Numbered from the stretch's first letter, positions 16,384 to 36,323 are shown. The stretch is 64,000 bases of DNA from an uncultured Thermoleophilia bacterium (GCA_963715985.1 CAVQSP010000003.1:32001-96000), one strand, 5' to 3'. Made by a program: numbers and translations. Notes: generated from the sequence alone by a model not told the origin.

Positions 16384-16505
16384 TACAGCATCTCAGCCGT
16401 CTGCCGGAGTCGTCGGTCGCAGAGGGGAGACCAGTAGGGCGGCCGGTGTTCTTCGACGATTCGGAGTGTCACGACACTTCGGACGAAGCAGGGGAGGCAC
16501 GCATC

Positions 16506-17876
16506 GTGATCAGGTATCTCGAGGTGGTCGATCGGGCCATGACAGGGCAGTACCGCAAGGAGATGGACTTCACCATGAAGGTGCTGGTCCCGAAGCTCAA
16601 GCAGTTGGTCGTGAAGCACGGCATCAAGTACGACCCCGACATCCCGGTGCCGTATGACGACGATCTTGCCGACCGCGTGTTCCAGGCGGGATTCGAACTG
16701 TATCGGGACGTCGGGCTGTACTGCCCGGACTCGCAGCGCATCATGAGGTTCACGGAGGAGGAGCTGCTGCAGGCGCTCAAGGACTCCCCGGCCGAGACTG
16801 TCCTCGGGGAGGGCAAGCAGCAGCGCACCCTTGCGCCCCGGCAGCCGGACTCGGACGTCCCGCCGTGGTGCTGGCTCGGCGCCCTCGGCGCCGCGGTCTC
16901 CAACGAGGAGTTCTACTCCAGCATCATGGAGGCCTACGCCACCTACCTGCCTCTGGCCGACTCGATCACCGCGCCGAGCCTGGCGAGCTTCAATGGGCGA
17001 ACGGTGCGGACCGGCACTCCCCTGGAGGTGATCGCCGCGATGCGGGTCACCAGCCTGGGAAAGGACGCCCTGCGCCGGGGCAACCGGCCGGGGCTTCCCA
17101 TCATGAACTCCATTGCCACGGCCGGTTCCGACGTCGCGAAGATCGCCGGCAGCTCCTTCGGGCTGCAGACCTGGGACACGTGGGTCGTCGGCCACACCGC
17201 CGAATTCAAGCTCGGCTTCGAGCGACTCAACGAGATCGCCTGGATCATCGGCACCGGGGGAGGACTCATCGCCGAGTGCGCCCCGATCCTCGGCGGCTAC
17301 TGCGGGGGGCCGGAGGGCGTCGCGGTGGCCAATGCAGCCTACCTTCTCAGCGGCATCATCGCGATGCAGGCCGACGCCTTGCTCACCTTCCCGACCCATT
17401 TCAACCTCGGGTGCACCACCGAACGCTCTGTGATCTGGGCGAAGTCGGTGAGCGTGCAGGCCATGACCCGCAACAGCCACTTCCCCGTCTTCGTGGATCA
17501 CTACACCGCCCACGGCCCCATGACGGAGATGTTCTTCTACGAGAATGCCGCCGACGTGATCGCCTCGGTGGTCTCCGGCGGCCATGTCACCGCCACGGGC
17601 TCCGCCAAAGGCACGCACATGGACCACTTCACGCCCATGGAGCCTCGGTTCTCTGGCGAGGTGGCGCACGGCTCCGCGGGCATGACCCGAGAAGAGGCCA
17701 ACGAGATCGTCAAGCGCCTGCTCGAGCGGTACGAGAGCACGCTGGCCCAGGCCTCCCCCGGGCAGACGTACGAAGAGTGCTGGGACACCCGCCGCAAGGA
17801 GCCGAACCCCGAGTACGTCGAGCTCTACGAGTCGGTGACGAAGGACCTCGCGAGTCTGGGGGTCCGGCTCGTCTGA
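16506..17876 (+). CDS. monomethylamine:corrinoid methyltransferase MtmB-family protein, pyrrolysine-free
   Basis: family motifs YDPDIPVPYDDDLADRVFQAG, RPGLPI, GGYCGGPEG, GQTYEECWD; GTG 16506 after GGGGAGG; Met where MtmB has Pyl. Confidence 0.82.
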   Translation: MIRYLEVVDRAMTGQYRKEMDFTMKVLVPKLKQLVVKHGIKYDPDIPVPYDDDLADRVFQAGFELYRDVGLYCPDSQRIMRFTEEELLQALKDSPAETVLGEGKQQRTLAPRQPDSDVPPWCWLGALGAAVSNEEFYSSIMEAYATYLPLADSITAPSLASFNGRTVRTGTPLEVIAAMRVTSLGKDALRRGNRPGLPIMNSIATAGSDVAKIAGSSFGLQTWDTWVVGHTAEFKLGFERLNEIAWIIGTGGGLIAECAPILGGYCGGPEGVAVANAAYLLSGIIAMQADALLTFPTHFNLGCTTERSVIWAKSVSVQAMTRNSHFPVFVDHYTAHGPMTEMFFYENAADVIASVVSGGHVTATGSAKGTHMDHFTPMEPRFSGEVAHGSAGMTREEANEIVKRLLERYESTLAQASPGQTYEECWDTRRKEPNPEYVELYESVTKDLASLGVRLV

Positions 17877-17970
17877 GCCCGGCAGACACGGCGGGGCGCC
17901 GGGCCCGGCTGGCGGGCGCGCCGGGTTCGCGTCCGCGGTGGCGAGCACAACTGGCAAGAGGGAGAGTGCG

Positions 17971-18636
17971 ATGGAACGGCTCTTTGCAGAACTCAAGCAA
18001 GCGGTCATCACCGCTGACGAAGGGCTCGCGAGCGAGGCCGCGAGGCAGGTCGTGGCCCAGAGCGACGATCTTCTCGCTGCCGTTGAGCAGGGTCTGTCAG
18101 CGGGGATGACGGTCATCGGACAGGACTTCGAGAGGGGTGAGTGCTTCCTCCCCGAGCTCATCGGCGCCTCCCAGGCGTTCAACGCCGCCATGAAGGTCCT
18201 GGAGCCGGAGATCGACAAGGCCGGTGGAGACTTGAAGCGCCCCGGCGTCGCGGTGGTGGGCACCGTGGCGGGCGACGTGCACAACATCGGCAAGGACATC
18301 TTCGCCATGCTGCTGAAGGTCCGCGGCTTCGAGGTCCACGACCTCGGCGCGGACGTCTCCATGGGGAGCTACGTGGAGGCGGTGGAGGAGGTCGGTGCGG
18401 ACCTGATCGGAATGTCCGCGCTGCTCACGACCACCATGCCGAGCCAGAAAGAGGTCATCGACATGCTCGGCGAACTGGGCATGCGTGACAGGTATGTCGT
18501 CATGGTCGGCGGCGGTCCGGTGTCCCAGCAATGGGCCGACCAGATCGGTGCGGACGGCTACGCCGACACGGCGGAGGAGGGCGCTGAGCTCGCCCTCAAG
18601 CTGGTCGCCGAGAAGAAGGCGAAGACGACCGCTTGA
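17971..18636 (+). CDS. methyltransferase cognate corrinoid protein (MttC/MtmC-like)
   Basis: FLPELI cap domain, DxHxxG motif GDVHNIGK, MSALLTTTM, VMVGGGPVSQ, IGADGYA. Confidence 0.92.
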   Translation: MERLFAELKQAVITADEGLASEAARQVVAQSDDLLAAVEQGLSAGMTVIGQDFERGECFLPELIGASQAFNAAMKVLEPEIDKAGGDLKRPGVAVVGTVAGDVHNIGKDIFAMLLKVRGFEVHDLGADVSMGSYVEAVEEVGADLIGMSALLTTTMPSQKEVIDMLGELGMRDRYVVMVGGGPVSQQWADQIGADGYADTAEEGAELALKLVAEKKAKTTA

Positions 18637-18697: not shown

Positions 18698-20056
18698 ATG
18701 ACAATGACTGAGTTTGGGCCCTATCTCAAGGTGAACGAAGGAGGGCAGCTCGAGATCGAAGGGCTCTCGGTGGTCGACCTCGCAGAACAGTACGGCACAC
18801 CGCTCTTCGTCATCTCGGAGAACACCATCCGGGCCCGCATCCGCCGGATGCAGAAGGCGTTCACCGACCACTACCCCAACGAGATGATCATCTGCGTCGG
18901 CATGAAGGCCCAATGGGGCCTGGCCGTGCGCCGGGTCGTGGTCAAGGAGGGGGCCGGCGGCGACGCCTTCGGTCTGGGTGAGCTGACCGTCGCGATGATG
19001 GCCGGCTCTGACCCGAGGAAGATCGTCCTCAACGGGGCGAACAAGGCCGAGGATGCTCTGCGCGCTGCCATCGACACGGGCATCCTGATCCAGGTCGACC
19101 ACGAGGACGAGCTCGAGGCGGTCGAGAGGCTGGCCGGCGAGATGGGCAAGACGGCCCGGGTGTCACTGCGGATCCGCCTGCCGCTCAACGCCATCGAGGA
19201 GGTCGTCTACGTCGACCCGCGCTACCCCGAAGGCATCAGCCCCACCTACTGGGAGCGGACCTTCAAGTTCGGTCTGGACCCCGAGAACTACTTCGCGGAG
19301 GTCGAGCGGGCCCTGGCGCTGAAGAACATCTCCCTTGAAGGCGTCATGTACCACGGCGGTATCCCGCGTCGCGCGGGGTACTTCCGCGAAGAGACCGAGG
19401 AACTGGTCGACATGATCGGCCAGATCAAGGCGAAGTTCGGGTGGTCACCCCAGTACCTCAACATCGGCGGCGGCTTCGTGCCCGAGCGGGTGGGACAGGA
19501 GATCCCCCCGTCGATCGAGGAGTACGCCGAGGTCATCAGCAAGGCCATCGTCTCCAAGTGCGAGGAGCACGGTCTCCCGGTGCCGGTGCTTCTGGCCGAG
19601 CCGGGACGCTACTGCGTGGACAGCGCAGGCATCTGGGTCGTCAAGGTCGGCAGCCTCAAGGACGACCGCAATCTGGCGAAGAAGAAGTGGGTCTACGTAG
19701 ACGGCAACACCAACGAGATGGGCGACCCCTTCGACCCGTACAATCGCGTCCACCACGTCGTCATCGCCAACGACCCGTACCGGGAGGGCACCGAGGTCGT
19801 CGAGATCGCCGGCCAGACGTGCAACGCGGCGGACGTCCTCGTCAAGGACCGCGAGCTTGCCAAGATGCGGGTGGGCGACACCCTCGCCTTCCTCGAGATG
19901 GGAGCCTACAACGAGGGCTTTGCCTGCCAGTCCAACGCCATCCCCAGGTCGGCCACGGTGATGGTGTGCGACGGGCGCGCGGCGGTCGTTCGGCGCAGAG
20001 AGACCGTGTCGGACGTACTCGCTCGCGAGAGCGTGCCGCCATGGCTGATGACCTGA
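18698..20056 (+). CDS. group IV PLP-dependent decarboxylase (diaminopimelate decarboxylase fold), divergent
   Basis: LAEQYGTPLFV, MKAQ (PLP Lys), KFG, LNIGGGF, EPGRY, GAY, VRRRET. Confidence 0.85.
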   Translation: MTMTEFGPYLKVNEGGQLEIEGLSVVDLAEQYGTPLFVISENTIRARIRRMQKAFTDHYPNEMIICVGMKAQWGLAVRRVVVKEGAGGDAFGLGELTVAMMAGSDPRKIVLNGANKAEDALRAAIDTGILIQVDHEDELEAVERLAGEMGKTARVSLRIRLPLNAIEEVVYVDPRYPEGISPTYWERTFKFGLDPENYFAEVERALALKNISLEGVMYHGGIPRRAGYFREETEELVDMIGQIKAKFGWSPQYLNIGGGFVPERVGQEIPPSIEEYAEVISKAIVSKCEEHGLPVPVLLAEPGRYCVDSAGIWVVKVGSLKDDRNLAKKKWVYVDGNTNEMGDPFDPYNRVHHVVIANDPYREGTEVVEIAGQTCNAADVLVKDRELAKMRVGDTLAFLEMGAYNEGFACQSNAIPRSATVMVCDGRAAVVRRRETVSDVLARESVPPWLMT

Positions 20057-20105
20057 ACGGCTCTTCGCACCTTGTGACGCGTCCGGACAAAAGGAGGCGA
20101 CCGGA

Positions 20106-21573
20106 GTGAAACGTAATGTGCATGCGGGACATCGCATGAGCGGCGGCTTGCGCCTCGAAGTATTCACGCCCGACGAGCTCCAGGACATCCATCTGGGGAC
20201 ACTCGATGTGCTCGAGCGGACCGGCGTCTACGTCGAGAGCGAGGAGGCCCAGGAGATCTTCGCGGGGGCCGGCGCGCGGGTCGGGGCCGACGGCGTCGTG
20301 AGGATCCCCGGGTCACGTCGTCGAGGAGGCCATCCGCTCCACGCCGTCGCAGCTTGCGATGTACGGACGGGATCCCAAGCACGACGTCGTCCTCGAGGAC
20401 GGACGCGTCAACTTCCTCAACTTCGGTGAGGCCGTCTTCGTCGCCGATCCCGAGACCGGAGAGCTGCGGCAGACGTTGAAGCAGGACGTCGCCGACATCT
20501 CGCGGGTCATCGACGCGCTGCCCCAGATCGACGCGATCCTGCGGCCGGCCGGCGCCCACGACGTGCCCGAGCCGGTGGGCCCGCTCCACAACGCTGAGGC
20601 GATCTTCACGAACTGCTCCAAACACGCCATCATCGGCCCCCTGACCGGCTACCTGGCGCGGCGCATGCGCGAGATGGCGGCGGCGCTCGTGGGCGGGGCG
20701 GAGCAGCTGCGTGAGCGCCCCATCTTCTCCTACGTGGTCTGTCCGGTCAGCCCTCTCAATCTGCCGAAGGACGTGAGCGACGTCATCGTCGAGGGCGCGC
20801 GCGAGGCGGTGCCGACATCCGTCGTGTCGATGGCGCTGGCGGGGGGCTCCGCGCCTGTGAACCTGGCGGGCGCAGTCATCGTGCACAACGCAGAGGTGCT
20901 CTCCGCCCTCACCCTGGCGCAGCTGACCAGGCGTGGCGCCTCGATGATCTACGGGAGCTCGACGACCGCGCTCGACCTGCGCTACGCGGTCGCCACGGTG
21001 GGCAGCCCCGAGTGCGGGCTCATCAACGCCGCCATCGCCTGCCTCGCGCGTCACTACGGCCTGCCCAGCTGGGTCGCCGGCTTGTAGGGCGACTCCAAAG
21101 TGGTGGACGCGCAGTCCGGCCACGAGAAGACCCTCACCGGTCTGCTGACGGCGTTGGCAGGTGCCAACCTCATCTACGGTGCGGGGATGCTCGACACGGC
21201 CATGACCATCGATTACGGCCAGCTGGTGCTGGACGCCGAGTTCGCCGAGCTCATCAAGTGCTGCGTCAACGGGGTGCCCGTGAACGACGAGACGCTCTCG
21301 CTCGACGTGATCAACGACGTCGGCCCCTTCCACGACTTCCTCAGCCACGCCGACACCCTGCGCCACATGCGCATCCAGTCGCAGCCCATGTTGGTCGACC
21401 GCCGCGTCCGCGAGGAGTGGAGCGCCAACGGGTCGACGGACATCGCCGAGCGCGCCACCGCCAGGGCCCGCGAGATCCTTGCGACGCACGTGCCCACGCC
21501 GCTCCCGGAGGGTGCGGCGGAGGAGATGCGGGCCATCATCAGGAACGCGGAGCGCGAACTCGGGTGCACGTGA
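20106..21573 (+). CDS. mttB: trimethylamine:corrinoid methyltransferase family, pyrrolysine-containing copy 1 (TAG 21085-21087; extra G near 20310)
   Basis: collinear with copies 2-4; VAGL-TAG-GDSKVVDAQSGHEKT stays in frame; about 488 aa after removing one G from CCCCGGGTCAC. Confidence 0.88.
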
Positions 21574-21693
21574 GGGTTGCCGGTGGCGCGGAAGAGGCAC
21601 GCCGGCTTGGAGCAGCGCAGGGCCGGAGGATGAGCCGGGAAGGCTCCTGGAGCACCGGCGATCCGTCTCTCGTCGCCGGGTCAGGGTGAGGCG

Positions 21694-22386
21694 TCAGGCC
21701 GCCGACCCGGCTCCCGGGTGGGTGGCTCGGCCGGCGCCGCCGGCCGACTCGGTGGCCGCGCCCGCGGTCCTTCGCGTCGAGATCCACACGTCGAGGATCG
21801 ACTCGAGCATGTCGTAGGCCTCGCCGGTGTCGAGTTTCTCCGGGTCCATCGCATATTGCACAGCCAGCCCGTCGACCACGGCGATGATCAGCCTCGTGAA
21901 ACCGCGCATCTCGCGCGGTGTCAGGTCGGGGAGGTCGTCCGCGAGGATGCGGCTGTAGGTCTCCATGGCCCACTCGTACAGTGCCGTGATGCGCGCGTTG
22001 TGGCGTTCGTCGCGCAGGATCTCCGGGAGCAACTCGAGGAACGCGAGGTAGAGATCCGTGTTCTCGCTCATCTGCTGCTTGGCCTCGCGGAACGCGTGGA
22101 GCCGCTCCTCGGCCGGTCGCGCGACGAGCCCCGGGAGGACGAGGCCGATGTTCTCGTGGACCCAGGTGTCCACCACCGCCTCCATGAGGCCGGCCTTGTT
22201 CCCGAAGTAGTACCGGATCGCCGTCTTGTCGAGCCCGCAGGCGCTCGAGACACTCTCCAGGGTGAGCGATGGATAGCCCTTCTGGATGAGGAGGCGCAGC
22301 GACTCTTCGACGATCCGCTGTGCGGTCGGGGGCAGCTCGGCGAGAGGATCACGCTGAGCGACTGAGGCTTTGGCTCCCACTCCCAC
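21694..22386 (-). CDS. TetR/AcrR family transcriptional regulator (paralogue of 15477..16136)
   Basis: HTH TLESVSSACGLDKTAIRYYFGNKAGL; GTG start after AAGGAGG. Confidence 0.88.
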   Translation of the reverse strand: MGVGAKASVAQRDPLAELPPTAQRIVEESLRLLIQKGYPSLTLESVSSACGLDKTAIRYYFGNKAGLMEAVVDTWVHENIGLVLPGLVARPAEERLHAFREAKQQMSENTDLYLAFLELLPEILRDERHNARITALYEWAMETYSRILADDLPDLTPREMRGFTRLIIAVVDGLAVQYAMDPEKLDTGEAYDMLESILDVWISTRRTAGAATESAGGAGRATHPGAGSAA

Positions 22387-22453
22387 TCGTCCTCCTTGGC
22401 GGATGGCTGGCACGGGAGCGCCTGATGCCGGAGATCGGCGGGTGCTTCCGCGA

Positions 22454-22500
22454 TTGACACGGTCCCAAGTGATGCTACAGTCTACACCCACCGGTGGGTG
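22454..22500 (+). promoter_or_regulatory. promoter with perfect 16-bp palindromic operator (prpE-mttB operon)
   Basis: TTGACA 22454-22459, 16 nt, TGc-TACAGT 22476-22481, CACCCACCGGTGGGTG 22485-22500. Confidence 0.72.
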
Positions 22501-22553
22501 GCCACCACGCGGTGGACTCAATCGTCTCGCCGCCGCCCGATGCGAGGAGCTAC

Positions 22554-24458
22554 ATGAGTGAAGCATACGAAGCGGCCTACCAGGCGTCCATCCTGCGGCC
22601 GGAGAGCTTCTGGGCCGAGGCCGCCGAGGGCATCGAGTGGACGCGGCGCTGGGACGCGGTCCTCGACCGCAGCGCCGCTCCCGCCCCGCGCTGGTTCGCC
22701 GGCGGCAGCCTCAACACCTGCTACAACGCCATCGACCGTCACGTCCTCGCCGGCAGGGGGGAGGCCGCCGCGGTCATCTACGACAGCCCGGTGACGGGCG
22801 CGAACGCGCGCCTCACCTACGCCGAGCTCCTCGAGGAGGTCTCGCGCTTCGCCGGCGGCCTGCGCGATCTTGGCGTGGAGCGCGGCGACCGTGTCGTCAT
22901 CTACATGCCGATGATCCCGCAGACGCTCGTCGCCATGCTCGCCTGCGCGCGCCTCGGCGCGGTGCACTCCGTGGTCTTCGGCGGTTTCGCCGCGCAGGAG
23001 CTCGCGACCCGCGTCGACGACGCCGAGCCCAAGGTCATCGTGTGGGCCTCGTGTGGGATCGAGGGCAGCCGGGTCATCCCCTACAAGCCGCTGCTCGACC
23101 GCGCCATTGAGCTGGCGCAGCGGCCGCCGGCGGCTACGGTCGTCTTCCAGCGCGAGCAGCAGCTCGCGCCGCTCGTCGACGGCAGGGACCACGACTGGGG
23201 CGAACTGAGGCGGGCCGCGCCGGCCGCCTGCGTCTCCGTCGCGGCCACGGACCCCCTCTACATCCTCTATACGTCGGGGACGACCGGCAAACCGAAGGGC
23301 GTGGTCCGGGACCACGGCGGCCACGCCGTCGCCCTGCTCTGGTCGATGAGGAACCTCTACGACGTCGGCCCCGGCGAGGTCTTTTGGGCCGCCTCCGACA
23401 TGGGTTGGGTGGTCGGCCACTCCTACATCGTCTACGCGCCGCTGCTGGCCGGCGCCACCACCGTCGTCTACGAAGGCAAGCCGGTGGGCACGCCGGACGC
23501 CGGCGCCTTCTGGCGCGTCATCGCCGAGCACCGCGTCAAGGCGCTCTTCACGGCCCCGACCGCGATCCGCGCGATCCGCCGCGAGGACCCGCAGGGCGAG
23601 CTCGTGAAGAGCTACGACACGAGCTCCCTGGAGGCGCTCTACCTGGCCGGGGAGCGTCTCGACCCCGACACCTACCACTGGGCCGGCGAGGTCCTCGGCG
23701 TGCCGGTGGTCGACCACTGGTGGCAGACCGAGACCGGCTGGGCGATCTGCGCCAACTGCCGGGGCCTCGAGGAGCTGCCCATGAAGGCGGGCTCGCCGAC
23801 AAGGCCGGTGCCGGGCTTCGACCTCGTGGTGCTGGATGCGTCCGGCGAGCCGCTGGAGCCGCCGGCGGAAGGCACCCTGGCCTTGCGCCTGCCCTTGCCC
23901 CCCGGCGCGCTGCCGACGCTGTGGCACAACGACGAGGGCTTCGTGACCACCTATCTGGCGCCGTTCCCCGGCTACTACTTCACCGGCGACAGCGGCAGCA
24001 TCGACGCGGACGGCTACGTCTTCGTCATGGGTCGCGTCGACGACATCATCAACGTCGCCGGTCACCGGCTTTCGACGGGGCGCATGGAGGAGGTCCTCGC
24101 CGCCCATCCTGACGTCGCCGAGTGCGCCGTGGTCGGTGCTGCCGACGACCTCAAGGGTCAGATCCCGCTGGGGCTCGTGGTGCTCAAGGAGGGAGCCGCC
24201 CGCGAGCCCGAGGATGTCACCGCCGAGCTCGTGCGTATGGTGCGCGAGCAGGTCGGGCCGGTGGCTGCCTTCAAGCGCGCGCTGGTCGTCCAGCGTCTGC
24301 CCAAGACGCGCTCCGGCAAGATCCTGCGCAGCGCCATCCGCAAGCTCGCCGACGGCGTCGAGTTCGCGACGCCGGCGACCATCGAGGACGCCTCCGTCAT
24401 CGAGGACCTGCGGATCGCCTTGGGTCATGACCAGCGCACGCAATCGCCGACCGGCTGA
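22554..24458 (+). CDS. prpE: propionate--CoA ligase / acyl-CoA synthetase
   Basis: WFAGGSLNTCYNAIDRH, YILYTSGTTGKPKG, DHWWQTETG, LPKTRSGKILR. Confidence 0.85.
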   Translation: MSEAYEAAYQASILRPESFWAEAAEGIEWTRRWDAVLDRSAAPAPRWFAGGSLNTCYNAIDRHVLAGRGEAAAVIYDSPVTGANARLTYAELLEEVSRFAGGLRDLGVERGDRVVIYMPMIPQTLVAMLACARLGAVHSVVFGGFAAQELATRVDDAEPKVIVWASCGIEGSRVIPYKPLLDRAIELAQRPPAATVVFQREQQLAPLVDGRDHDWGELRRAAPAACVSVAATDPLYILYTSGTTGKPKGVVRDHGGHAVALLWSMRNLYDVGPGEVFWAASDMGWVVGHSYIVYAPLLAGATTVVYEGKPVGTPDAGAFWRVIAEHRVKALFTAPTAIRAIRREDPQGELVKSYDTSSLEALYLAGERLDPDTYHWAGEVLGVPVVDHWWQTETGWAICANCRGLEELPMKAGSPTRPVPGFDLVVLDASGEPLEPPAEGTLALRLPLPPGALPTLWHNDEGFVTTYLAPFPGYYFTGDSGSIDADGYVFVMGRVDDIINVAGHRLSTGRMEEVLAAHPDVAECAVVGAADDLKGQIPLGLVVLKEGAAREPEDVTAELVRMVREQVGPVAAFKRALVVQRLPKTRSGKILRSAIRKLADGVEFATPATIEDASVIEDLRIALGHDQRTQSPTG

Positions 24459-24508
24459 CAGGCACGAGCCCGGCCCCCTCACGGGCCCCCGAGGAAGGTA
24501 GGACAGCA

Positions 24509-25981
24509 GTGAAACGCAATCTCCATGCCGGCCGCCGCCGCAGCGGCGGCCTGCGCCTCGACGTCTTCACCGACGACGAGCTCTCCGACATCCATCTGGC
24601 GACGCTGGACGTGCTCGAGCGCACCGGGGTCGGCGTCGAGAGCGAGGAGGCGCAGGAGATCTTCGCCGGGGCCGGCGCCCGCGTGCAGAGCGACGGGATC
24701 GTCAAGATCCCCGGCCACGTCGTCGAGGAGGCGATCGCCAGCACTCCGTCGCGGCTCGTCTGCTACGGGCGCGACCCCAAGCACGACATCGTGCTCGAGG
24801 ACGGGCGCGTCGGCTTCACCAACTTCGGCGAGGGCATCCAGGTCATCGATCCCTACACCGGCGAGCTGCGCCAGACCGGCAAGCAGGACGTCGCCGACTG
24901 CTCGCGGATCATCGACGCACTGCCCGAGATCGACGTCATCGAGCGGCCGCTGGGGGCGCACGACGTGCCGGAGGCCACCGGTCCGCTTCACAACGCCGAC
25001 GCCATCATGACCAACTGCTCGAAGCACGCCTTCATCGGCCCCCTGACCGGCTACCTCGCGAGCCGCATGCGCGAGATGGCAGCCGCCATCGCCGGCGGCG
25101 CCGAGAAGCTGCGCGAGCGGCCGATCCTCTCGTACGTGATCTGTCCGGTGGCGCCGCTCGGGATGATCCGCGACGTCTGCGACATCATCATCGACGGCGC
25201 CCGCAACCACGTGCCTATCACGCCGGTCTCGATCGTCATGGCCGGCGGCTCCTCGCCCATGAACCTGGCGGGCGCCGTGGTCACGACCAACGCCGAGATC
25301 CTGGGCTGCCTGACGCTGGCCCAGCTGACCCGCAAGGGGACGCCGGTCGTGTACGGAAGCTCATCGTCCTCGATGGACCTCCGCTACGCCTCCGCCTCCG
25401 TGGGCAGCCCCGAGTGCGGCCTCATCAACGCCGCCATCGCCTGTATGGCGCGCGCCTACCTCCTGCCCAGCTGGGTCGCGGGGCAGTAGGGCGACTCCAA
25501 AGTGGTGGATGCCCAGTCCGGCCACGAGAAGACCCTCACCGGTCTGCTGACGGCGTTGGCAGGTGCCAACCTCATCTACGGTGCGGGGATGCTCGAGAGC
25601 GGCATGACCATCGATTACGGCCAGCTCGTCATGGACGCCGAGTTCGCGCGTCTCATCAAGTACACGGTCGCCGGCGTGCCGGTCAGCGACGAGACGCTCT
25701 CGCTCGACGTGATCAACGACGTCGGCCCCTTCCACGACTTCCTCAGCCACGCCGACACCCTGCGCCACATGCGCACCCAGAGCCAGCCCACGCTCATCGA
25801 CCGCCGCGTCCGCGAGGAGTGGAGCGCCGACGGTTCGACGACCATCCACGAGCGTGCCACGGCCCGCGCCCGCGAGATCCTCGAGACCCACGTGCCCACG
25901 CCGCTGCCCGAGGGCGCCGCCGCCGAGATGGCCGCCATCATCGCCGACGCAGAGCGGCACCTGGGGGTGACGAAAGCATGA
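24509..25981 (+). CDS. mttB: trimethylamine:corrinoid methyltransferase family, pyrrolysine-containing copy 2 (TAG 25487-25489)
   Basis: 490 aa when TAG codon 327 is read through; VAGQ-O-GDSKVVDAQSGHEKT; GANLIYGAGMLESG. Confidence 0.92.
25376..25972 (+). repeat. ~600-bp direct repeat, apparently identical to 30409..31005 (3' parts of mttB copies 2 and 3)
   Basis: identical by eye; alternative-frame translations in the ORF track also match. Confidence 0.88.
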
Positions 25982-27370
25982 ACGACATGACGCACATCGA
26001 GCCCGACCCTGCTCGGGAGCAGCGCATCCGCGACCTCGACCGCGAGTACGTCCTGCACTCCTGGTCCGTGCAGTCGCAGATCAGGCCGCTGCCTGTGGCC
26101 GGCGCCGACGGGCGCTACTTCTGGGACTACGAGGGCAAGCGCTATCTCGACTTCTCGTCTCAGCTCGTCAACGTCAACATCGGGCATCAGCACGCCAAGG
26201 TGGTCGAGGCGATCGTGGAGCAGGCGCGCACGCTCTGCACGATCGCGCCCTCCGTGGCGAACGAGAAGCGCTCGGAGCTCGCCCGGCTGCTGGCCGAAGT
26301 CACGCCGGGCAACCTCAAAGCGTCCTTCTTCACCAACGGCGGCGCGGAGGCCAACGAGAACGCCATCAAGCTCGCCCGCTGGTACACGGGCAGGCAGAAG
26401 ATCATCGCCCGCTACCGCTCGTACCACGGGGCCACGGCCGGCGCCATCGCGCTGACCGGCGACCCCCGTCGCTGGCCCGCCGAGCCGAGCATCCCGGGCG
26501 TGGTGCGCATGTTCGACCCCTACACCTACCGCTGCTCGGCCGGGCGACGGGGCGAGACCGTGGCCGAGCACGTGGCCGCCTGCCCCGTGTGCGCGGGCGG
26601 CCCTCACCTGGAGGAGATCCTCCAGTACGAGGGGCCGCACACGGTGGCCGCGGTGATCCTCGAAACGGTCACCGGCACCAACGGCATCATCGTCCCGCCG
26701 GACGGTTACCTGCAGTCGATGCGCGAGGTGTGCGACCGCCACGGCGTCCTGCTCATCCTCGACGAGGTCATGGCCGGCTTCGGGCGCACCGGCACGCTGG
26801 TTCGCCTGCGACCACTGGGACGTCATGCCCGACATCATGACGGTAGCCAAGGGCATCAACTCAGGCTACGTACCGCTCGGGGCGATGGTCGTCAGCGAGC
26901 CCATCGCCGAGTGGCTGCAGGACAAGTACCTCGCCGGCGGTCTCACGTACAGCGGGCACCCGCTGGCCTGTGCCTCGGCCGTGGCCTCCATCGAGGCGTT
27001 TCGTGAGGAGGGCATCGTCGAGAACGCCGCGGCGATGGGCGACGTCCTGGCGGTCGAGACGGCGGCGCTGGCCGCCCGGCATCCGTCGGTCGGTGAAGTG
27101 CGCGGCCTGGGCCTCTTCTGGGGTCTCGAGCTGGTGCGCGACCGGGAGACGCGCGAGCCCCTGGTGCCCTTCAACGCTGCCGGCGACGCAGCCGCGCCGA
27201 TGGCGCGCCTGGGGAAGGCGGCCATGGAGCGTGGCCTCCTCCTGATGACTCACTTCAACGTCCTCGTGATCTGCCCGCCTCTCACCATCACGCGCGAAGA
27301 GCTCGCGGAGGGTCTGGCCGTGATAGACGAGGTTCTCACGCTCTCCGACCTGGAGTGCGCCCAGCCATGA
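25978..27370 (+). CDS. class III PLP aminotransferase (omega-amine / beta-alanine type; frameshift near 26794)
   Basis: YLDFSSQLVNVNIGH, FTNGGAEANE, SYHG, LILDEVMAGFGRTG, TVAKGINSGYVPLG, LTYSGHPLAC. Confidence 0.88.
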
Positions 27371-27434
27371 CCGCCCACTCCGCGCGACGAGGGATCAGCA
27401 CAGCACGGGCCCTGGCCCCGACGAAAGGATCGAC

Positions 27435-28934
27435 ATGAGCGTCGCACCCCCTGTGACTTTCAACCTCCTGGAGCCGCCGAAGCAGCACTACGGCGTGCTG
27501 CGCAACTTCATCGGTGGCAAGTGGGTGGACGTCGAGACCGACCGCGTCGTCGACGTGGACGACCCCGCAAGCGGCAAGGTCATCGCCCAGGTCCCCATCA
27601 GCACCACAGACCAGGTCAACGACGCCATCCAGGCAGCCCAGGACGGCTACCAGACCTGGCGCCGGACGCCCCCGGGGGACCGCGGCCGCTTCATGTTCGA
27701 GATCCGTGCGGCGATGCAGCGGCACGCGGAGGAGCTGTCCCGCCTGGTCACTCAAGAGAACGGCAAGGTCATCGCCGAGGGCCGCGGCGAGGCTATGCGG
27801 ACGATCGAAGCGGTCGAGACCGCCGCCGCCATCACGAGCCTCATGGGCGGCTATCAGCTCGAGGACGGCGCCGCCCGCAACATCGACGAGATGGTCGTGC
27901 GCCAGCCGCTCGGCGTCTGCGCCTGCATCACGCCGTTCAACTTCCCGATCATGATGACCGGCTTCTGGTGGCCTTACGCCATAGCCGCCGGCAACACCTT
28001 CGTGGTGAATCAGTCGAAACAAACGCCTATCACCATCACGCGCGTCTTCGAGATCATCGAGGAAGTGGGCCTTCCCGCCGGCGTCATGAACCTCGTGCAG
28101 GGCGACCGCACCGCCTCCGCGGCCTTCATGGACTCTCCGCAGATCAAGGCGGTCGGCTTCATCGGTTCGACCCCGGTCGCCAAGGAGATCTACCGCCGGG
28201 CCGGCGAGACCGGCAAGCGCTGCGTGGCCAACGGCGGCGCCAAGAACTTCGCCGTGTTCATGCCGGACGCCGACGTCGACCGCAACATGGGCAACCTGAT
28301 CACGAGCTTCTTCGGCTGCACGGGTCAGCGCTGCCTGGCCACCGCGGTGGTGCTGGCGGTCGGCGACGTCTACGACGAGCTCGTCGAGAAGTTCGTGGCC
28401 GCGACGCGGGCACTCAAGGTCGGCCCCGGGCTCGACGAGAGCGTCCACATCGGCCCCGTCATCTCGGCAGCGGCAAACGCCCGCATCCGCGACTACATCC
28501 AGAGCGGCATCGATCAAGGCGCCGAGCTTCTGGTGGACGGGCGCGACGTCGAAGTTCCGGGCTATGAGGGCGGCCACTATGTCGGGCCCACCATCTTCGA
28601 CAACTGCACCCCGGACATGACGATCTGTCAGGACGAGATATTCGGCCCCGTGGCGGCGATCGTGCGCGTCAAGGACCTCGACGAGGCGCTCGCCATCACC
28701 AACGCCTCCCCTTACGGCAATCAGGCCGTGATCTACACGAGCAACGGGGGCCATGCGCGCCGCTTCTGGTACGAGGTCGAGGCCGGAAACATCGGCGTGA
28801 ACATCGGCGTGGCCGCTCCGGTGGCGTATTACCCGTTCGCCGGCATGAAGGACTCACACTACGGCAACGGCTACGCGATGCGCGATTCGTTCGACCTGTT
28901 CACCGAGAAGAAAGTCGTCATCACCCGCTGGTAG
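27435..28934 (+). CDS. mmsA: CoA-acylating (methyl)malonate-semialdehyde dehydrogenase
   Basis: ITPFNFP, GGAKN, GQRCLA, EIFGPV, GVNIGVAAPVAYYPF, family C-terminus KVVITRW; ends in TAG. Confidence 0.85.
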   Translation: MSVAPPVTFNLLEPPKQHYGVLRNFIGGKWVDVETDRVVDVDDPASGKVIAQVPISTTDQVNDAIQAAQDGYQTWRRTPPGDRGRFMFEIRAAMQRHAEELSRLVTQENGKVIAEGRGEAMRTIEAVETAAAITSLMGGYQLEDGAARNIDEMVVRQPLGVCACITPFNFPIMMTGFWWPYAIAAGNTFVVNQSKQTPITITRVFEIIEEVGLPAGVMNLVQGDRTASAAFMDSPQIKAVGFIGSTPVAKEIYRRAGETGKRCVANGGAKNFAVFMPDADVDRNMGNLITSFFGCTGQRCLATAVVLAVGDVYDELVEKFVAATRALKVGPGLDESVHIGPVISAAANARIRDYIQSGIDQGAELLVDGRDVEVPGYEGGHYVGPTIFDNCTPDMTICQDEIFGPVAAIVRVKDLDEALAITNASPYGNQAVIYTSNGGHARRFWYEVEAGNIGVNIGVAAPVAYYPFAGMKDSHYGNGYAMRDSFDLFTEKKVVITRW

Positions 28935-28991
28935 GACTGGGCGCCGTTCGCCGGCGCCCGATCTCCGCGAGCGCGAGCTGGAGGAGTTTGG

Positions 28992-29348
28992 ATGGACAAG
29001 GACGCGATCCTCATCAAGAGCGGCGACGTCGCCCCCATCGTGCCGCCGAAGCACAGGAACACGGACACCTGGGTCATGGTGCGTCCGGCCACGACGGGCA
29101 ACACGCAGTGCGAGTTCTTCGTCACGGAGATGCGGCAGGGCGGCGGCGCCGACTGGGACACCCACCCGGGCTGCGAGCACATCTACTTCGTGATGGCCGG
29201 CCGCGCCAAGATGTGGGTGGAGGAAGAAGAGTTCGATCTGGAGCCCGGTGACTGTCTCCTGATGCGCGAGGGCGTCCGCCACAAGGTCGATGTGGTCGGC
29301 AGCGAGACCTTTCGCATCGGGGTGGTCTTCGCGCCGGGGCGCGTGTGA
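28992..29348 (+). CDS. cupin domain protein
   Basis: THPGCEHIYFVMAG and LEPGDCLLMREGVRH cupin motifs; GGAGG RBS. Confidence 0.82.
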   Translation: MDKDAILIKSGDVAPIVPPKHRNTDTWVMVRPATTGNTQCEFFVTEMRQGGGADWDTHPGCEHIYFVMAGRAKMWVEEEEFDLEPGDCLLMREGVRHKVDVVGSETFRIGVVFAPGRV

Positions 29349-29541
29349 AGAGCTGCCGACAGACGCGATGCGCGCGCCGGGCGCTGAGCAAGGGAGCGGG
29401 CGGGACCGCTTGCGAACCGGACGTAACGGTGGTGAGCTTGAGCGAAGCGCGGCAAGGTCCACCGCCGCGGTCGGGCGCTTCAAGCAGCTCACGGGTATGG
29501 CCACCGTCGTCTGACGGGGCTCCGAGGAAGCGAGGACAGCA

Positions 29542-31014
29542 GTGAAACGCAATCTCCATGCCGGCCGCCGCCGCAGCGGCGGCCTGCGCCTCGACGTGTT
29601 CACCGACGACGAGCTCTCCGACATCCATCTCGGCACCCTCGACGTGCTCGAGCGCACCGGGGTCTACGTCGAGAGCGAGGAGGCCCAGGAGATCTTCGCC
29701 GGGGCCGGCGCCCGCGTCGGCGCGGACGGGGTCGTGAGGATCCCCGGCCACGTCGTCGAGGAGGCGATCGCCAGCACGCCCTCGCGGCTCGTCTGCTACG
29801 GCCGCGACCCCAAGCACGACGTCGTGCTCGAGGACGGGCGCGTGGGCTTCACCAACTTCGGCGAGGGCATCAACGTCGTCGACCCCTACACCGGCGAGCT
29901 GCGCCAGACCGTGAAGCAGGACGTCGCCGACTGCTCGCGGATCATCGACGCACTGCCCGAGATCGACGTCATCGAGCGGCCTCTGGGGGCGCACGACGTG
30001 CCCCAGGAGACGCAGCCTCTGCACAACGCCGAGGCGATCCTCACAAGCTGCTCGAAGCACGCCTTCATCGGCCCCATGACCGGCTACCTCGCGAGCCGCA
30101 TGCGCGAGATGGCGGCCGCCATCGCCGGCGGCGCCGAGAAGCTGCGCGAGCGGCCGATCCTCTCGTACATCACGTGTCCCATCAGCCCCCTCAAGATGGT
30201 GCAGGACGTCTGCGACATCGTCATGGAGGGCGCCCGCTCCGGCGTTCCCGTCAACGTCGTGTCCATGGCCATGGCCGGGGCGTCGTCCCCGGTGAACCTG
30301 GCCGGGACGTGCGTGTCACACAACGCCGAAGTGCTCTCCTGCCTCACGCTCGCCCAGCTCACGCAGAAGGGCGCGCCCATGGTCTACGGCAGTTCGACCA
30401 CGGGCATCGACCTCCGCTACGCCTCCGCCTCCGTGGGCAGCCCCGAGTGCGGCCTCATCAACGCCGCCATCGCCTGTATGGCGCGCGCCTACCTCCTGCC
30501 CAGCTGGGTCGCGGGGCAGTAGGGCGACTCCAAAGTGGTGGATGCCCAGTCCGGCCACGAGAAGACCCTCACCGGTCTGCTGACGGCGTTGGCAGGTGCC
30601 AACCTCATCTACGGTGCGGGGATGCTCGAGAGCGGCATGACCATCGATTACGGCCAGCTCGTCATGGACGCCGAGTTCGCGCGTCTCATCAAGTACACGG
30701 TCGCCGGCGTGCCGGTCAGCGACGAGACGCTCTCGCTCGACGTGATCAACGACGTCGGCCCCTTCCACGACTTCCTCAGCCACGCCGACACCCTGCGCCA
30801 CATGCGCACCCAGAGCCAGCCCACGCTCATCGACCGCCGCGTCCGCGAGGAGTGGAGCGCCGACGGTTCGACGACCATCCACGAGCGTGCCACGGCCCGC
30901 GCCCGCGAGATCCTCGAGACCCACGTGCCCACGCCGCTGCCCGAGGGCGCCGCCGCCGAGATGGCCGCCATCATCGCCGACGCAGAGCGGCACCTGGGGG
31001 TGACGGGGACATGA
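29542..31014 (+). CDS. mttB: trimethylamine:corrinoid methyltransferase family, pyrrolysine-containing copy 3 (TAG 30520-30522)
   Basis: 490 aa with read-through of TAG codon 327; same motif as copy 2. Confidence 0.92.
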
Positions 31015-31039: not shown

Positions 31040-32506
31040 GTGAGGCGCAACGCCGCCACGGAGCGCCGGCCTCTCGTCGGCGTGAGCATGCAGGTGCTGA
31101 GCCAGGACGGCATCGACGACATCCACCTCGCGACGCTCGAGGTCCTGGCGCAGGCAGGAGTGTTCGTCGAATCCGACGATGCCCTGGATGTGCTGGCCGA
31201 CGGCGGCTGCCGGGTGGACAAGGCGACGAAGATGGTGCGCATACCGCCCCACGTCGTCGAGGACGCGGTTCGCTCGGCGCCCCCGACGCTCGTCCTGCAC
31301 GGACGAGACCGCGCACGCGACGTGGTCGTCGAGCGGGGGCGGGGTGTCTTCACGAGCTTCGGCGAGGGCATCTTCGTCATCGACCCCTTCACCGGCGAGC
31401 GCCGCGAGCCGCGCAAGGATGATGTCGCGGCCTCCGCCGCCGCGGTCGATGCCCTCGATGAGCTCGGCATCTGCAACCGTGCGCTCGGCGCCCACGACGT
31501 CCCCCAGGCGGTCGCCGCCCTGCATACGGCCGACGCGATCCTGCGCAACACGACCAAGCACGTCTTTCTCGGCCCGCAGCGCGGCTTCCTCGCGGAGAGT
31601 ATCGTGGGTCTGCAGGCGGTCATCCTGGGGTCCGCGGACGCCGTCCGCGAGCGTCCCCTGGTCACCTTCACCGCGTGCCCCGTGAGCCCACTCAAGCTGG
31701 CCCGTGACTGCTGCGAGGTCATCCTGGTGGCCGCTCGCAGCGGTGTCGGCGTCAACGTGGCCTCCATGGCCATGGCCGGCGGCTCATCGCCGATCACACT
31801 CGCCGGCACGCTGGTGACGCACAATGCCGAGGTGCTGGCCGGCATCACGCTCGCCCAGCTCGCCGAGCGGGGCGCGCCGGTGATCTACGGCAGCGTGAGC
31901 ACCGGCATGGACCTGCGCCTGGCGTCGGCGAGCGTCGGCTCACCCGAGCTCGCCCTCATCACCGCCGCGGTGGCGCAGCTGGCCCAGCACTACCGCCTGC
32001 CGAGCTTCGTCGCCGGCGGCCTCGGCGACAGCAAGCTCCCCGATGCGCAGTCCGGGCACGAGAAGACGCTGACCGCCACATTCGCGGCGCTGGCAGGCGC
32101 GAACGTGATCGCCGGCGCCGGCATCATGGAGTCGGGGCTCACCTTCGACTTCGGCCAGCTGGTCATGGACGCCGAGTTCGTCGGCATGATCGGGCACTGC
32201 GCGGCCGGCATCCGCGTCGACGACGAGACGCTGGCCGTCGACGACATCTGCGCCGTCGGCTCGTTCGGCGACTACCTCAGTCTCGAGGCGACGATGCACC
32301 ACATGCGCGAGCAGAGCCAGCCGCGTCACATCGACCGCCGCGTGCGGGAGGACTGGCTGGCGCTGGGCGGCACCGACCTCCATCAGCGTGCCCTGGCCGA
32401 AGCGCGGCGCATCCTCCGAGAGTACCGGCCGGAGCCGCTCCCCGACGACATACAGGCGCAGATGACGAGCCTGGTGACGGAGACGGAGACCCGCCGTGGG
32501 CTGTGA
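31040..32506 (+). CDS. MttB-family methyltransferase copy 4, pyrrolysine-free (Leu at Pyl site)
   Basis: uninterrupted 488 aa; VAGG-L-GDSKLPDAQSGHEKT aligns with the TAG site of copies 1-3. Confidence 0.9.
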   Translation: MRRNAATERRPLVGVSMQVLSQDGIDDIHLATLEVLAQAGVFVESDDALDVLADGGCRVDKATKMVRIPPHVVEDAVRSAPPTLVLHGRDRARDVVVERGRGVFTSFGEGIFVIDPFTGERREPRKDDVAASAAAVDALDELGICNRALGAHDVPQAVAALHTADAILRNTTKHVFLGPQRGFLAESIVGLQAVILGSADAVRERPLVTFTACPVSPLKLARDCCEVILVAARSGVGVNVASMAMAGGSSPITLAGTLVTHNAEVLAGITLAQLAERGAPVIYGSVSTGMDLRLASASVGSPELALITAAVAQLAQHYRLPSFVAGGLGDSKLPDAQSGHEKTLTATFAALAGANVIAGAGIMESGLTFDFGQLVMDAEFVGMIGHCAAGIRVDDETLAVDDICAVGSFGDYLSLEATMHHMREQSQPRHIDRRVREDWLALGGTDLHQRALAEARRILREYRPEPLPDDIQAQMTSLVTETETRRGL

Positions 32507-32560: not shown

Positions 32561-33772
32561 ATGACGACTCTAGACGACGTGGTGCGGCGACAGACGATCG
32601 TCGACGCGAGGAGGTTCGATCTCGAGGGCGCCGGCCCCACGATGATGGCGGTGGTCACGACCGGCAACGGCGGCCTGGACAAGCTCGACTATCGCGAGGT
32701 GCCCGTTCCCAAGCCCGCGGCAGGCGAGGTCCTGCTGCAGGTCCTCGCGGCCGGGGTCAACAACACCGAGATCAACACCCGTCTCGGCTGGTACTCGTCG
32801 AGTGTCACCGACAGCACCGAGAGCACGGCGGAAGCCGAGGAGCGGGAGGCGAAGCAGAAGGCCGACGGCGGATGGAGCGAGCCGACGCCGTTCCCGTTCA
32901 TCCAGGGCACCGACTGCTGCGGGCGCGTGGTCGAGGTCGCGCCGGGCGGGGACGAGAGCATGCTCGGGCGGCGCGCGCTCGTACGCGCCTGTATGCGCCC
33001 GCTCGGGTTCGGGTCCAAGGAGAACATCTGGATGGCGTCCGACTTCGACGGCGCGTTCGCCCAGTTCGTCAAGGTCCCCGCGTCGGAGGTCTTCCCCGTG
33101 GACTGCGACTGGAGCGACGTGGAGCTGGCCACCATCCCGTGCTCCTACGGGGCCGCCGAGAACATGGTGCACCGCGCCGCCCCGGTGGAAGGCGAGCACG
33201 TCCTCGTCACCGGCGCCTCGGGTGGTGTCGGGTCCGCGGCGGTGCAGCTGGCGAAGCGCCGCGGAGCCACCGTCATCGCCGACGACTCCTACCGCTTCGC
33301 GCGCCTCCGGCCGGACACCACGCCCGGCGACCGGGAGCGTCGCGAGGAGTGGCTGCAGCAGCTGCACGCCATCGGCGCTGACCGCGTCATCGAGACCGGC
33401 GAGGACATCGCCGACCTCCTCGGCGAGAAGAGCGTGGACGTCGTCATCGACAACGTGGCCGGGCCGTCGTTCGACGGCCTTCTGAGGGCGCTGAAGCGCG
33501 GCGGGCGGTACGCATCCTCGGGTGCGATCGCCGGTCCGCTGGTGACGCTCGACAAGCGCACGTTCTACCTCAAGGACCTCACGCTGATCGGCTGCACTGC
33601 GTGGGACGAGCCGGTCTTCCCGAACCTCGTCTCCTACATCGAGCGCGGCGAGATACGGCCGCTCGTGGCCAAGACGTTTCCGCTCGGCCGCATCGCCGAC
33701 GCGCAGCGCGAGTTCCTCGAGAAGCGGCATCTCGGCAACTTCGTGCTGATCCCTCCCGGGATGGACGAGTGA
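32561..33772 (+). CDS. medium-chain dehydrogenase/reductase (alcohol dehydrogenase / quinone oxidoreductase-like)
   Basis: VLAAGVNNTEINTR, IQGTDCCG, VLVTGASGGVGSAAVQLAK. Confidence 0.85.
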   Translation: MTTLDDVVRRQTIVDARRFDLEGAGPTMMAVVTTGNGGLDKLDYREVPVPKPAAGEVLLQVLAAGVNNTEINTRLGWYSSSVTDSTESTAEAEEREAKQKADGGWSEPTPFPFIQGTDCCGRVVEVAPGGDESMLGRRALVRACMRPLGFGSKENIWMASDFDGAFAQFVKVPASEVFPVDCDWSDVELATIPCSYGAAENMVHRAAPVEGEHVLVTGASGGVGSAAVQLAKRRGATVIADDSYRFARLRPDTTPGDRERREEWLQQLHAIGADRVIETGEDIADLLGEKSVDVVIDNVAGPSFDGLLRALKRGGRYASSGAIAGPLVTLDKRTFYLKDLTLIGCTAWDEPVFPNLVSYIERGEIRPLVAKTFPLGRIADAQREFLEKRHLGNFVLIPPGMDE

Positions 33773-35920: not shown

Positions 35921-36275
35921 CGAAAGCAGACTGACCACGAAGTCGACCTGACGCAGGGTCCCCGGGAGGTCGCACTCCACGTACCGCCGGCCGCCGCACG
36001 CGGCCCGACGTCGCCCCCCGTGTCGGTGCGCGTGTCCGCACTTGCCGAGGTGCCGTCCGGCGGGGTGGAGCGCTACAGCCGGGGGCCCTGCGCCACTCAG
36101 GGCGGCCTGCCTTGATCTCCGTCGGGCCGGCCGCCCGCGCCGCCGCCTTCACGGGCTCGCGTCTGCGCAGCCGTCAATCGCATCTCTGGCGGTCGTAGGA
36201 GTGTTCGCATCATTTTTGTGCTGCCAACACCCGTCACCACAGAACATCTGCACACGTGAGCAGTCGGCATCGGCT

Positions 36276-36323
36276 AATTGACCGGTCAGTTTACTTGCCA
36301 TCCTACGGCGACGTGTGTATGGT
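36276..36323 (+). promoter_or_regulatory. palindrome AAtTGACCGGTCAgTT upstream of a TTGCCA-17-TATGGT promoter
   Basis: palindrome 36276-36291; -35 at 36295-36300; -10 at 36318-36323. Confidence 0.5.

Follow-up and report, generated by a model that had tools for sequence, protein, structure and literature searches.

We examined a 64,000-nucleotide stretch of DNA from an uncultured Thermoleophilia bacterium (GCA_963715985.1, contig C3:32001-96000; hereafter the window, to which all coordinates without a contig name refer), which contains four paralogous genes for the trimethylamine methyltransferase MttB, here named P1 to P4. Three of these genes, P1, P2 and P3, carry a TAG codon at the site that is occupied by pyrrolysine (Pyl) in MttB of Methanosarcina barkeri. 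Judging from the sequence comparisons described below, we consider it highly likely that P2 and P3, probably joined by P1, encode Pyl-dependent MttB enzymes, and that their UAG codon is read as Pyl by a bacterial-type Pyl system encoded in the same genome. This decoding had already been proposed in the initial annotation of the window, and the proposal is supported both by the pyl genes that are present elsewhere in the genome and by the alignment of the TAG with the Pyl334 column of the solved M. barkeri structure. The source is a metagenome-assembled genome (MAG) of 4.35 Mb, which consists of 22 contigs and has a GC content of 70%.

Amber codons at the pyrrolysine site of MttB

According to the initial annotation, TAG is codon 327 of an otherwise collinear MttB of about 490 amino acids in each of the three copies. 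This holds for P2 and P3, which are frames of 490 codons with TAG at codon 327 (25487-25489 and 30520-30522, respectively) and without a second stop. In P1 a TAG is indeed present at 21085-21087, in the same alignment column as those of P2 and P3, but the gene is not collinear, as its frame is broken near 20312 by a one-base insertion that had been missed. The start of P1 at 20106 is therefore out of frame with its own TAG: codons 1-68 lie in the frame of 20106 and the remainder in the frame of 20107, which in a DNA alignment with P2, P3 and P4 is due to one surplus base in CCCCGGGTCAC (about 20308-20313), at the position where a CCCC run meets a GGG run. Beyond the TAG the frame stays open for 161 codons in P1 and for 163 codons in P2 and P3, in good agreement with the approximately 160 codons that had been stated, and the GC content at third codon positions (GC3) downstream of the TAG is 0.92-0.94 across the three genes (0.94 in P1). 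The motif AG[L/Q]-TAG-GDSKVVDAQSGHEKT had been given correctly for all three TAGs, and P4 is uninterrupted with Leu at the Pyl column, as had been noted and as both its frame and the alignment bear out. All four paralogues match PF06253 (MTTB) with 255-310 bits (cut-off 25), which accords with their earlier assignment to this family, and the matches of P2 and P3 cover model positions 30-497 of 500.

When solved structures were searched, residues 2-483 of P3 aligned with M. barkeri MttB with scores of 392 bits (7XCM) and 389 bits (7XCL), as compared to only 235 bits for the non-Pyl glycine betaine enzyme MtgB (2QNE). Residue 327 of P3, which corresponds to the TAG, falls on X, that is Pyl334, in the sequence YVAGSXSDAKVPDDQAGHEKT of PDB entry 7XCL. 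The structure paper describes an active site around Pyl334 that includes Gly110, Thr111, Met249 and Tyr364; it reports Gly110 and Tyr364 as fully conserved in Pyl-MttB, does not call Met249 and Thr111 invariant, and states that in the M. barkeri complex Met249 shifts to accommodate the substrate (PMC9842639). The equivalents of Gly110 and Tyr364 are kept in P1-P3 as G107 and Y357. Genome-wide, PF06253 has 89 matches, many of which are fragments, and 10 MttB genes have a TAG in one common alignment column within the motif AGxO[GSAT]D[SGA]K. All 10 of these genes have Tyr at the Tyr364 column, as compared to one of the four non-Pyl paralogues examined (P4 has Ala), and Gly is found at the Gly110 column in six of the eight TAG-bearing copies that are aligned there, the other two having D and A. 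Matches to the Rfam family PYLIS_3 (RF02510) begin exactly at the three TAGs with 73.9-77.6 bits (gathering score 38), and the TAG-less P4 also matches with 56.7 bits. Single-sequence folds 3' of the TAG were unremarkable (z-values of -1.21 and -0.66), and the PYLIS_3 matches may reflect conserved coding sequence only rather than an insertion element.

When P3 was used as query, a match at E<=1e-100 was obtained in 30 of the 31 genomes of the genus, the source genome included. The TAG is present in 136 of the 141 homologue matches listed; these 136 have identities of 47-97% and alignments that extend past the stop, four of them having an additional TGA and one having two TAGs. The five stop-free matches include P4, an orthologue of P4 and one partial match. 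Together with the common TAG column of the 10 MttB genes, this pattern is far beyond chance. Moreover, the sequence that follows the TAG is under purifying selection. In a comparison of P3 with its orthologue in the closest genome, which is an independent assembly from another species (G043), the ratio of non-synonymous to synonymous substitution rates (dN/dS) was 0.064 for the part that precedes the TAG, based on 46 synonymous versus 10 non-synonymous changes, and 0.10 for the part that follows it (16.5 versus 5.5). Contigs from the RNA library of run X17 cover 25552-25683 and 25754-25950, past the TAG of P2, which is no demonstration of transcription; P2 and P3 do not differ in this stretch. 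The TAGs might also be true stops or sites of read-through by a standard amino acid, yielding 326-residue fragments or a Pyl-free full-length protein, for example if pylB were broken. We consider this very improbable in view of the retention of the TAG over such a range of divergence, the purifying selection past it, and the occurrence of Tyr at the Tyr364 column together with TAG in every case.

Pyrrolysine machinery and genome-wide use of UAG

The genes that the initial annotation had named as relevant to Pyl decoding are located on contig C13 of the source genome: pylT, pylSn, pylSc, pylC and pylD were all found there, and pylB is present but split. The scores were 317.9 bits for pylC (cut-off 248), 199.5 bits for pylD (cut-off 150), 316.5 bits for PylSc with TIGR02367 (cut-off 178) and 124.6 bits for PylSn with TIGR03912 (cut-off 51). 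PylSn is encoded by a separate gene, and pylSc lies on the opposite strand at a distance of about 2.7 kb. The gene for tRNA-Pyl(CUA) that was identified with ARAGORN (C13:555126-555198, 73 nt) lies 70 nt downstream of pylD, and its product has an anticodon stem of six positions with one C.A mismatch; a tRNA-Pyl gene is also present in 17 of the 33 loci from relatives. Upstream of pylC, pylB is distributed over two frames by a one-base indel, the two parts scoring 303.8 and 125.8 bits, each below the cut-off of 348. Because three of five relatives have an intact pylB and the remaining two have it split at two sites other than that found here, consensus indel errors fit this pattern better than decay of the gene. 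A TAG-bearing MttB gene (C13:306720) and a TAG-bearing MtbB gene (C13:312530) share contig C13 with the pyl genes, and PylSc and TAG-MttB are encoded on one contig in four relatives (G007, G013, G024 and G002), so that contamination during binning is no explanation for their co-occurrence.

Several other genes were observed on the same contig. The segment between pylSn and pylSc (C13:557242-559041) encodes a radical-SAM protein, with weak matches to HpnJ-like B12-binding radical-SAM proteins, and a corrinoid protein (TIGR02370, 173 bits); these two open reading frames (ORFs) overlap, and at least one of their starts must be wrong. The contig, which is 676 kb long, also carries a gene for heme-copper oxidase subunit I (C13:213624-214964, 536 bits) and a tRNA-Sec gene (C13:139538-139635).

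TAG-bearing genes were also identified in the two other methylamine methyltransferase families. When counted as stops inside matches, one TAG each was found in 11 MtbB genes, of which eight are in one piece and three are interrupted by frameshifts, and in two MtmB genes, and the total of TAG-bearing methyltransferase genes is about 23. The context of the TAG is TGCGACGGCTTG-TAG-GTGGG in the MtbB genes at C11:41852 and C13:312530, and GACGGCTTG-TAG-GTGGGC in the one at C4:33570. Five further MtmB homologues in the genome are of the non-Pyl type (six match rows, one gene being matched in two frames). As to possible partners in methyl transfer, the genome has 22 matches to corrinoid proteins (TIGR02370), several of them fragments, two RamA-like activases, and three matches to Pterin_bind methyltransferases, one of which adjoins a RamA gene. 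No MtrH-type methyltransferase was found at E<=1e-10 in this 88.8%-complete genome. In the mechanism that we propose, Pyl synthesized by PylB, PylC and PylD would be inserted at UAG by way of Pyl-tRNA (pylT(CUA) with the split synthetase PylSn + PylSc), in competition with termination by release factor 1 (RF1). The amine substrate would then add to the Pyl imine, with an activating role for Tyr364 that is assumed by analogy to the M. barkeri enzyme, and the methyl group would be passed to Co(I) of a corrinoid protein, for which the gene at 17938-18636 is a candidate. From there it would probably be transferred to tetrahydrofolate by a pterin-binding methyltransferase, while a RamA-like activase would hold the cobalt in the reduced state.

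Stop codon usage was tallied with a composition-based proxy for genes (high GC3, and GC at first codon positions exceeding that at second positions, GC1>GC2). Under six filter settings (n between 1531 and 2875), TAG terminated 17.2-19.8% of the ORFs, TGA 77-79% and TAA 3%. The GC1>GC2 filter was directed against antisense ORFs, 77% of which end in TAG, and the tally was unchanged by it. RF1 is present (479.7 bits). Since TAG ends 17-20% of the genes and RF1 is present, UAG is ambiguous in this genome and not reassigned, as has been reported for other Pyl bacteria. In one genome of the class without Pyl (G030), TAG accounted for 26.6-32.3% of the stops in a 400-kb sample, but this is at most a hint at depletion of TAG in the source genome as it concerns a single genome with a higher GC content (76.5%). 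Backup stops showed no enrichment behind TAG codons, the median distance to the next in-frame TGA or TAA being 104 codons as compared to 69 codons after TGA, which is a weak measure at 70% GC.

TAG codons outside the methyltransferases were considered as well. Coding signal on both sides was found for 47 TAG sites, seven of which are located in known methyltransferases. From the other 40, 20 sites were chosen by eye for having no obvious start codon just past the TAG and were scanned; at 17 of these, two adjacent genes apparently share one frame, and at three the TAG lies inside a single protein. The first of these three is AcnX (PF04412, 396 bits; C3:97346-98821, minus strand, just outside the window), in which a single domain match encloses one in-frame TAG, while five homologues in three relatives of the genus have no stop and four of them have Glu at the aligned site. 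The second is a multiheme cytochrome c (C11:79945-81735, plus strand) with a TAG directly after a CxxCH motif and further CxxCH motifs downstream. Its homologues in 28 of 40 genomes of the genus align across the site and are free of stops except for two partial matches, and the four homologues inspected have GAG, AGC or CAG at this position. With sense codons in the relatives, AcnX and the cytochrome were ruled out as conserved Pyl sites. Both TAGs are specific to this genome and lie at variable positions; that of AcnX, in a variable linker, may have arisen through an error or a nonsense mutation, or may be a UAG tolerated through Pyl read-through. The third case is a GltD-like pyridine-nucleotide-disulphide oxidoreductase (C20:284381-286582, plus strand), in which AIGQ-TAG-LD falls inside one Pyr_redox_2 match and an apparent frameshift lies upstream.

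The Pyl system is not confined to the source genome. PylSc was detected in 61 of 301 genomes sampled from the class, the source genome included. When the source genome is left out, it was found in 51 of 55 genomes of one family (f1), in 9 of 55 genomes of a second family (f4), and in none of 190 genomes from ten other families. The trait therefore belongs to a sizeable clade and not to a single genome. Among 33 loci in public genomes that encode relatives of PylSc with 68-79% identity, 29 are labelled as uncultured Thermoleophilia, three as Actinomycetes or Actinomycetota, and one as Deltaproteobacteria.

A number of observations weigh against the view that P1-P3 are Pyl-dependent trimethylamine methyltransferases. 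The Thr111 column has Glu in every copy, and the Met249 column, although Met in P1 and P3, has Ile in P2. These departures weaken the identity of the predicted pocket, but not the membership of the proteins in Pyl-MttB. The genes next to P1-P3 are amine and aldehyde catabolic genes without a dedicated mttC or permease gene adjoining, so that a compound other than trimethylamine may be the substrate. The MAG has a rated completeness of 88.8% and a contamination of 7.29%, none of the metagenome contigs listed bridges the TAG of P2 at 25487-25489, and if the indel in pylB were real, the strain could not make Pyl. For P1 in particular, the read depth was below 0.6 in the bin 20000-20316, which holds the frameshift site, G043 has no P1 orthologue, and the dN/dS of 0.40 between P1 and P3 downstream of the TAG fits some relaxation of selection. 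The split pylB, the common use of TAG as a stop and the presence of RF1 are also what speaks for true stops or read-through without Pyl. On the other side, pylT, pylSn, pylSc, pylC and pylD are intact, and the breaks in pylB, which are placed differently where they occur in relatives, point to assembly errors. Decoding of the TAGs as Pyl thus remains our preferred interpretation. With respect to the contamination, near-identical MttB and corrinoid protein matches with the same 27-nt TAG context were observed at C3:6889-9588 and C9:167967-170411, and contigs C6 and C19 share a Thr-Tyr-Met tRNA set. Such repeated stretches probably stem from redundant contigs or from duplicated strains, which agrees with the contamination value of 7.29%.

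The broken frame after codon 68, the missing orthologue in the closest genome, and a dN/dS past the TAG that is higher than the 0.10 of the P3 orthologue pair would be in keeping with P1 being a decaying pseudogene, a recently gained copy whose frameshift is genuine, in which case only P2 and P3 would be functional. We regard this as rather unlikely, as 1.25 kb of P1 are free of further stops or indels, GC3 has stayed at 0.94, and the equivalents of Gly110 and Met249, the TAG and Tyr364 are all retained. A piece of P1 including the TAG recurs at 99% identity in two other metagenome runs, X1 and X2, whose contigs of 517 nt span 20625-21141 with four differences; three of these could be located, and none of the three falls at 21085-21087. 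In addition, the insertion is positioned at the CCCC/GGG junction, and one-base indels elsewhere in this assembly affect the aminotransferase gene of the window and pylB, genes that are intact in other genomes. For this latter reason we read the frameshift of P1 as probably an indel error of the assembly, a pseudogene being less likely. The aminotransferase has an intact frame of 461 amino acids in G043, and contigs of runs X1 and X3 are one base shorter at the position of the indel. The assembly has many frame breaks of a single base, as exemplified by the aminotransferase (26794-26795) and pylB (C13:552640-552690). Further apparent frame breaks were observed at 35273-38108, where a peptide ATP-binding cassette transporter cluster contains two SBP_bac_5 fragments, and at 54932-58788, where ORFs for formiminotransferase-cyclodeaminase overlap and urocanase is matched only in part. 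Many MttB and MtbB matches in the genome are likewise fragments in adjacent frames.

Concerted evolution of P2 and P3 and the gene neighbourhood

P2 and P3 share a tract of 597 identical nucleotides that spans the TAG (Table 1). The orthologous pair in G043 has an identical run of 595 nt with the same start, and the first 450 nt are identical as well. When the homogenised stretches are compared between the two genomes, the identity per 90-nt window is 90-100%. Identity within the genomes combined with difference between them implies that each genome homogenises its P2/P3 pair by gene conversion. A central cassette, comprising codons 211-289 of P2 and the counterpart in P3 at 30172-30408, has not been homogenised. 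Between the paralogues the cassette is 62-76% identical, with a dS of 1.19 and a dN of 0.315, and between orthologues its dN/dS values are 0.07 and 0.02, indicative of strong purifying selection. The cassette is situated in the TIM barrel and includes the equivalent of Met249 (Met in P3, replaced by Ile in P2), and the homogenised part includes Pyl, Tyr364 and the C-terminal dimerisation loop. What is new here is this concerted evolution of P2 and P3 that spares a protected central active-site cassette. It suggests that the two predicted enzymes have different pockets and perhaps different substrates.

One way to explain these findings is that the Pyl-MttB paralogues have diversified, with P2, P3 and others of the 10-gene set demethylating different tertiary amines, still by means of Pyl, and the cassette setting the substrate pocket. 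The preservation of an old cassette between homogenised ends would fit this idea, as would the position within it of the Met249 equivalent, a residue reported to give way to the bound substrate in M. barkeri MttB (PMC9842639). The same applies to the neighbouring genes, which encode a ligase, an aminotransferase, dehydrogenases, a cupin, a decarboxylase and BetI-type repressors, but no trimethylamine permease. Nonetheless, Gly110, Pyl and Tyr364 are retained, and the trimethylamine enzyme is matched by P3 with 389-392 bits; the dN/dS of the cassette between the paralogues is 0.26-0.32, which gives no sign of positive selection, and the paralogues could instead differ in regulation or in their corrinoid partner. 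All in all, we regard diversification in substrate as unlikely. An equally doubtful but wider picture would be that of a family of soil and wetland Thermoleophilia with a heme-copper oxidase and some two dozen UAG-containing methyltransferase genes per genome, in which Pyl-MttB has been diversified in substrate by means of a protected cassette. If true, it would place Pyl chemistry on tertiary amines beyond trimethylamine within amine and aldehyde catabolic operons.

The genes and tracts around the MttB paralogues are listed in Table 1. Elsewhere in the window, a non-Pyl MttB-family gene (51442-52884, minus strand) adjoins genes for histidine utilisation (53128-58788, minus strand) that encode histidine ammonia-lyase, formiminotransferase-cyclodeaminase, an amidohydrolase and urocanase. 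Another B12-dependent pathway is represented at 366-4060 (plus strand), where genes for a methylmalonyl-CoA mutase with a B12-binding domain and for a MeaB GTPase follow the end of a gene for the biotin subunit of propionyl-CoA carboxylase.

Table 1. MttB paralogues, tracts within them and neighbouring genes in the window.
Feature	Position	Strand	Evidence and remarks
Non-Pyl MtmB homologue	16446-17876	+	PF05369, 300.7 bits; no internal stop
Corrinoid (B12-binding) protein, candidate methyl acceptor	17938-18636	+	PF02607 + PF02310; TIGR02370, 203.7 bits at C3:49992-50579
Pyridoxal phosphate-dependent Orn/DAP/Arg-type decarboxylase	18698-20056	+	PF02784 + PF00278
MttB paralogue 1 (P1)	20106-21573	+	PF06253, 255 bits over 20320-21573; TAG and one-base insertion
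TetR/BetI-type regulator	21694-22566	-	PF00440 + PF13977
Acetyl-CoA-synthetase-like AMP-forming ligase	22494-24458	+	PF16177 + PF00501 + PF13193
MttB paralogue 2 (P2)	24509-25981	+	PF06253, 296 bits; G043 orthologue stops at the same codon
Central cassette of P2	25139-25375	+	No homogenisation
Gene-conversion tract in P2	25376-25972	+	Identical to the tract in P3
Class-III aminotransferase, two frames	26086-27370	+	Two ORFs on consecutive parts of PF00202; one-base indel at 26794/26795
Aldehyde dehydrogenase	27435-28934	+	PF00171, 469 bits
Cupin-domain protein	28992-29348	+	PF07883
MttB paralogue 3 (P3)	29542-31014	+	PF06253, 308 bits; TAG aligned with Pyl334
Gene-conversion tract in P3	30409-31005	+	Partner of the tract in P2
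MttB paralogue 4 (P4), non-Pyl	31040-32506	+	PF06253, 309.5 bits
Zn-dependent alcohol dehydrogenase family protein	32561-33772	+	PF08240 + PF00107

Significance and comparison with known systems

The initial annotation had regarded Pyl use in a bacterium of this kind as a rarity, which was too strong a claim, since Pyl has already been reported in Actinobacteria (PMC9630628, PMC10805028). The former paper counts 81 bacterial genomes with pyrrolysyl-tRNA synthetase (PylRS), among them 'two Actinobacteria' (PMC9630628), a statement that is repeated in PMC11764691. The latter describes Actinobacteriota MAGs from peatland, a thawing permafrost mire, that express Pyl-encoding mttB and mtbB, as inferred from truncation at the amber codon, and pylS and pylT are nowhere mentioned in its main text (PMC10805028). 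A literature search for pyrrolysine in Thermoleophilia gave no relevant paper, the one result being an unrelated soil survey, and a search for pylSn and pylSc in MAGs gave nothing on this clade. The preprint 10.1101/2024.09.30.615893 makes no mention of Actinobacteria, Actinomycetota or Thermoleophilia. The trait is thus barely described in print for this clade, with a brief mention for the phylum.

Gene callers that use translation table 11 split about 23 genes in the source genome as well as many TAG-bearing homologues in its relatives, because of which the use of methylamines by soil and wetland Actinomycetota will be under-counted. Tri-, di- and monomethylamine would be substrates for which the lineage competes with methylotrophic methanogens. 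To our knowledge, the cultured users of Pyl are anaerobes. A clade that combines Pyl use with a terminal oxidase of the aerobic type, ambiguity of UAG and retention of RF1 would be a useful natural case for the study of a codon with a dual meaning, and the PylRS/tRNA pair of an actinobacterium with 70% GC could be of interest to genetic-code engineers. The mosaic of P2 and P3 would amount to a ready-made experiment on what determines the substrate choice of Pyl enzymes. We consider the system worth pursuing for its large set of Pyl genes, its family-wide distribution, the oxidase gene and this mosaic.

The closest solved counterpart of P1-P3 is M. barkeri MttB (7XCL, 7XCM and 7XCN; PMC9842639), to which they are similar in the full-length alignment, the Pyl334 column, the motif AGxO.D.K..D.Q.GHEKT, Gly110 and Tyr364. 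The system described here differs in its bacterial host with 70% GC, the replacement of Thr111 by Glu and, in P2, of Met249 by Ile, and the lack of mttC and mttP genes directly beside the MttB genes. The methyl acceptor is probably tetrahydrofolate here as opposed to coenzyme M, as suggested by the presence of Pterin_bind matches and the lack of an MtrH match. MtgB of D. hafniense (2QNE) shares the PF06253 fold family and is the likely model for P4 and many of the non-Pyl copies, but P1-P3 differ from it by carrying TAG and Tyr364, in agreement with the higher score of P3 with the Pyl enzyme.

Bacterial Pyl systems with a split PylSn and PylSc are known from Desulfitobacterium hafniense, Acetohalobium arabaticum and Bilophila wadsworthia. 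The genome studied here resembles these in its separate pylSn and pylSc genes, the clustering of pylB (split here), pylC, pylD and pylT, the frequent use of UAG as a stop and the retention of RF1. It is unlike them in that the host belongs to the Actinomycetota (Thermoleophilia), that there are about 23 TAG-bearing methyltransferase genes, that the pyl contig carries a heme-copper oxidase gene, that pylSc is placed on the opposite strand, and that radical-SAM and corrinoid genes lie between pylSn and pylSc. With the permafrost-mire Actinobacteriota MAGs it has the phylum and the mttB and mtbB families in common, and it extends that description by the set of pyl genes, with pylB split, the alignment of the site, the family-wide distribution and the stop codon usage (PMC10805028).

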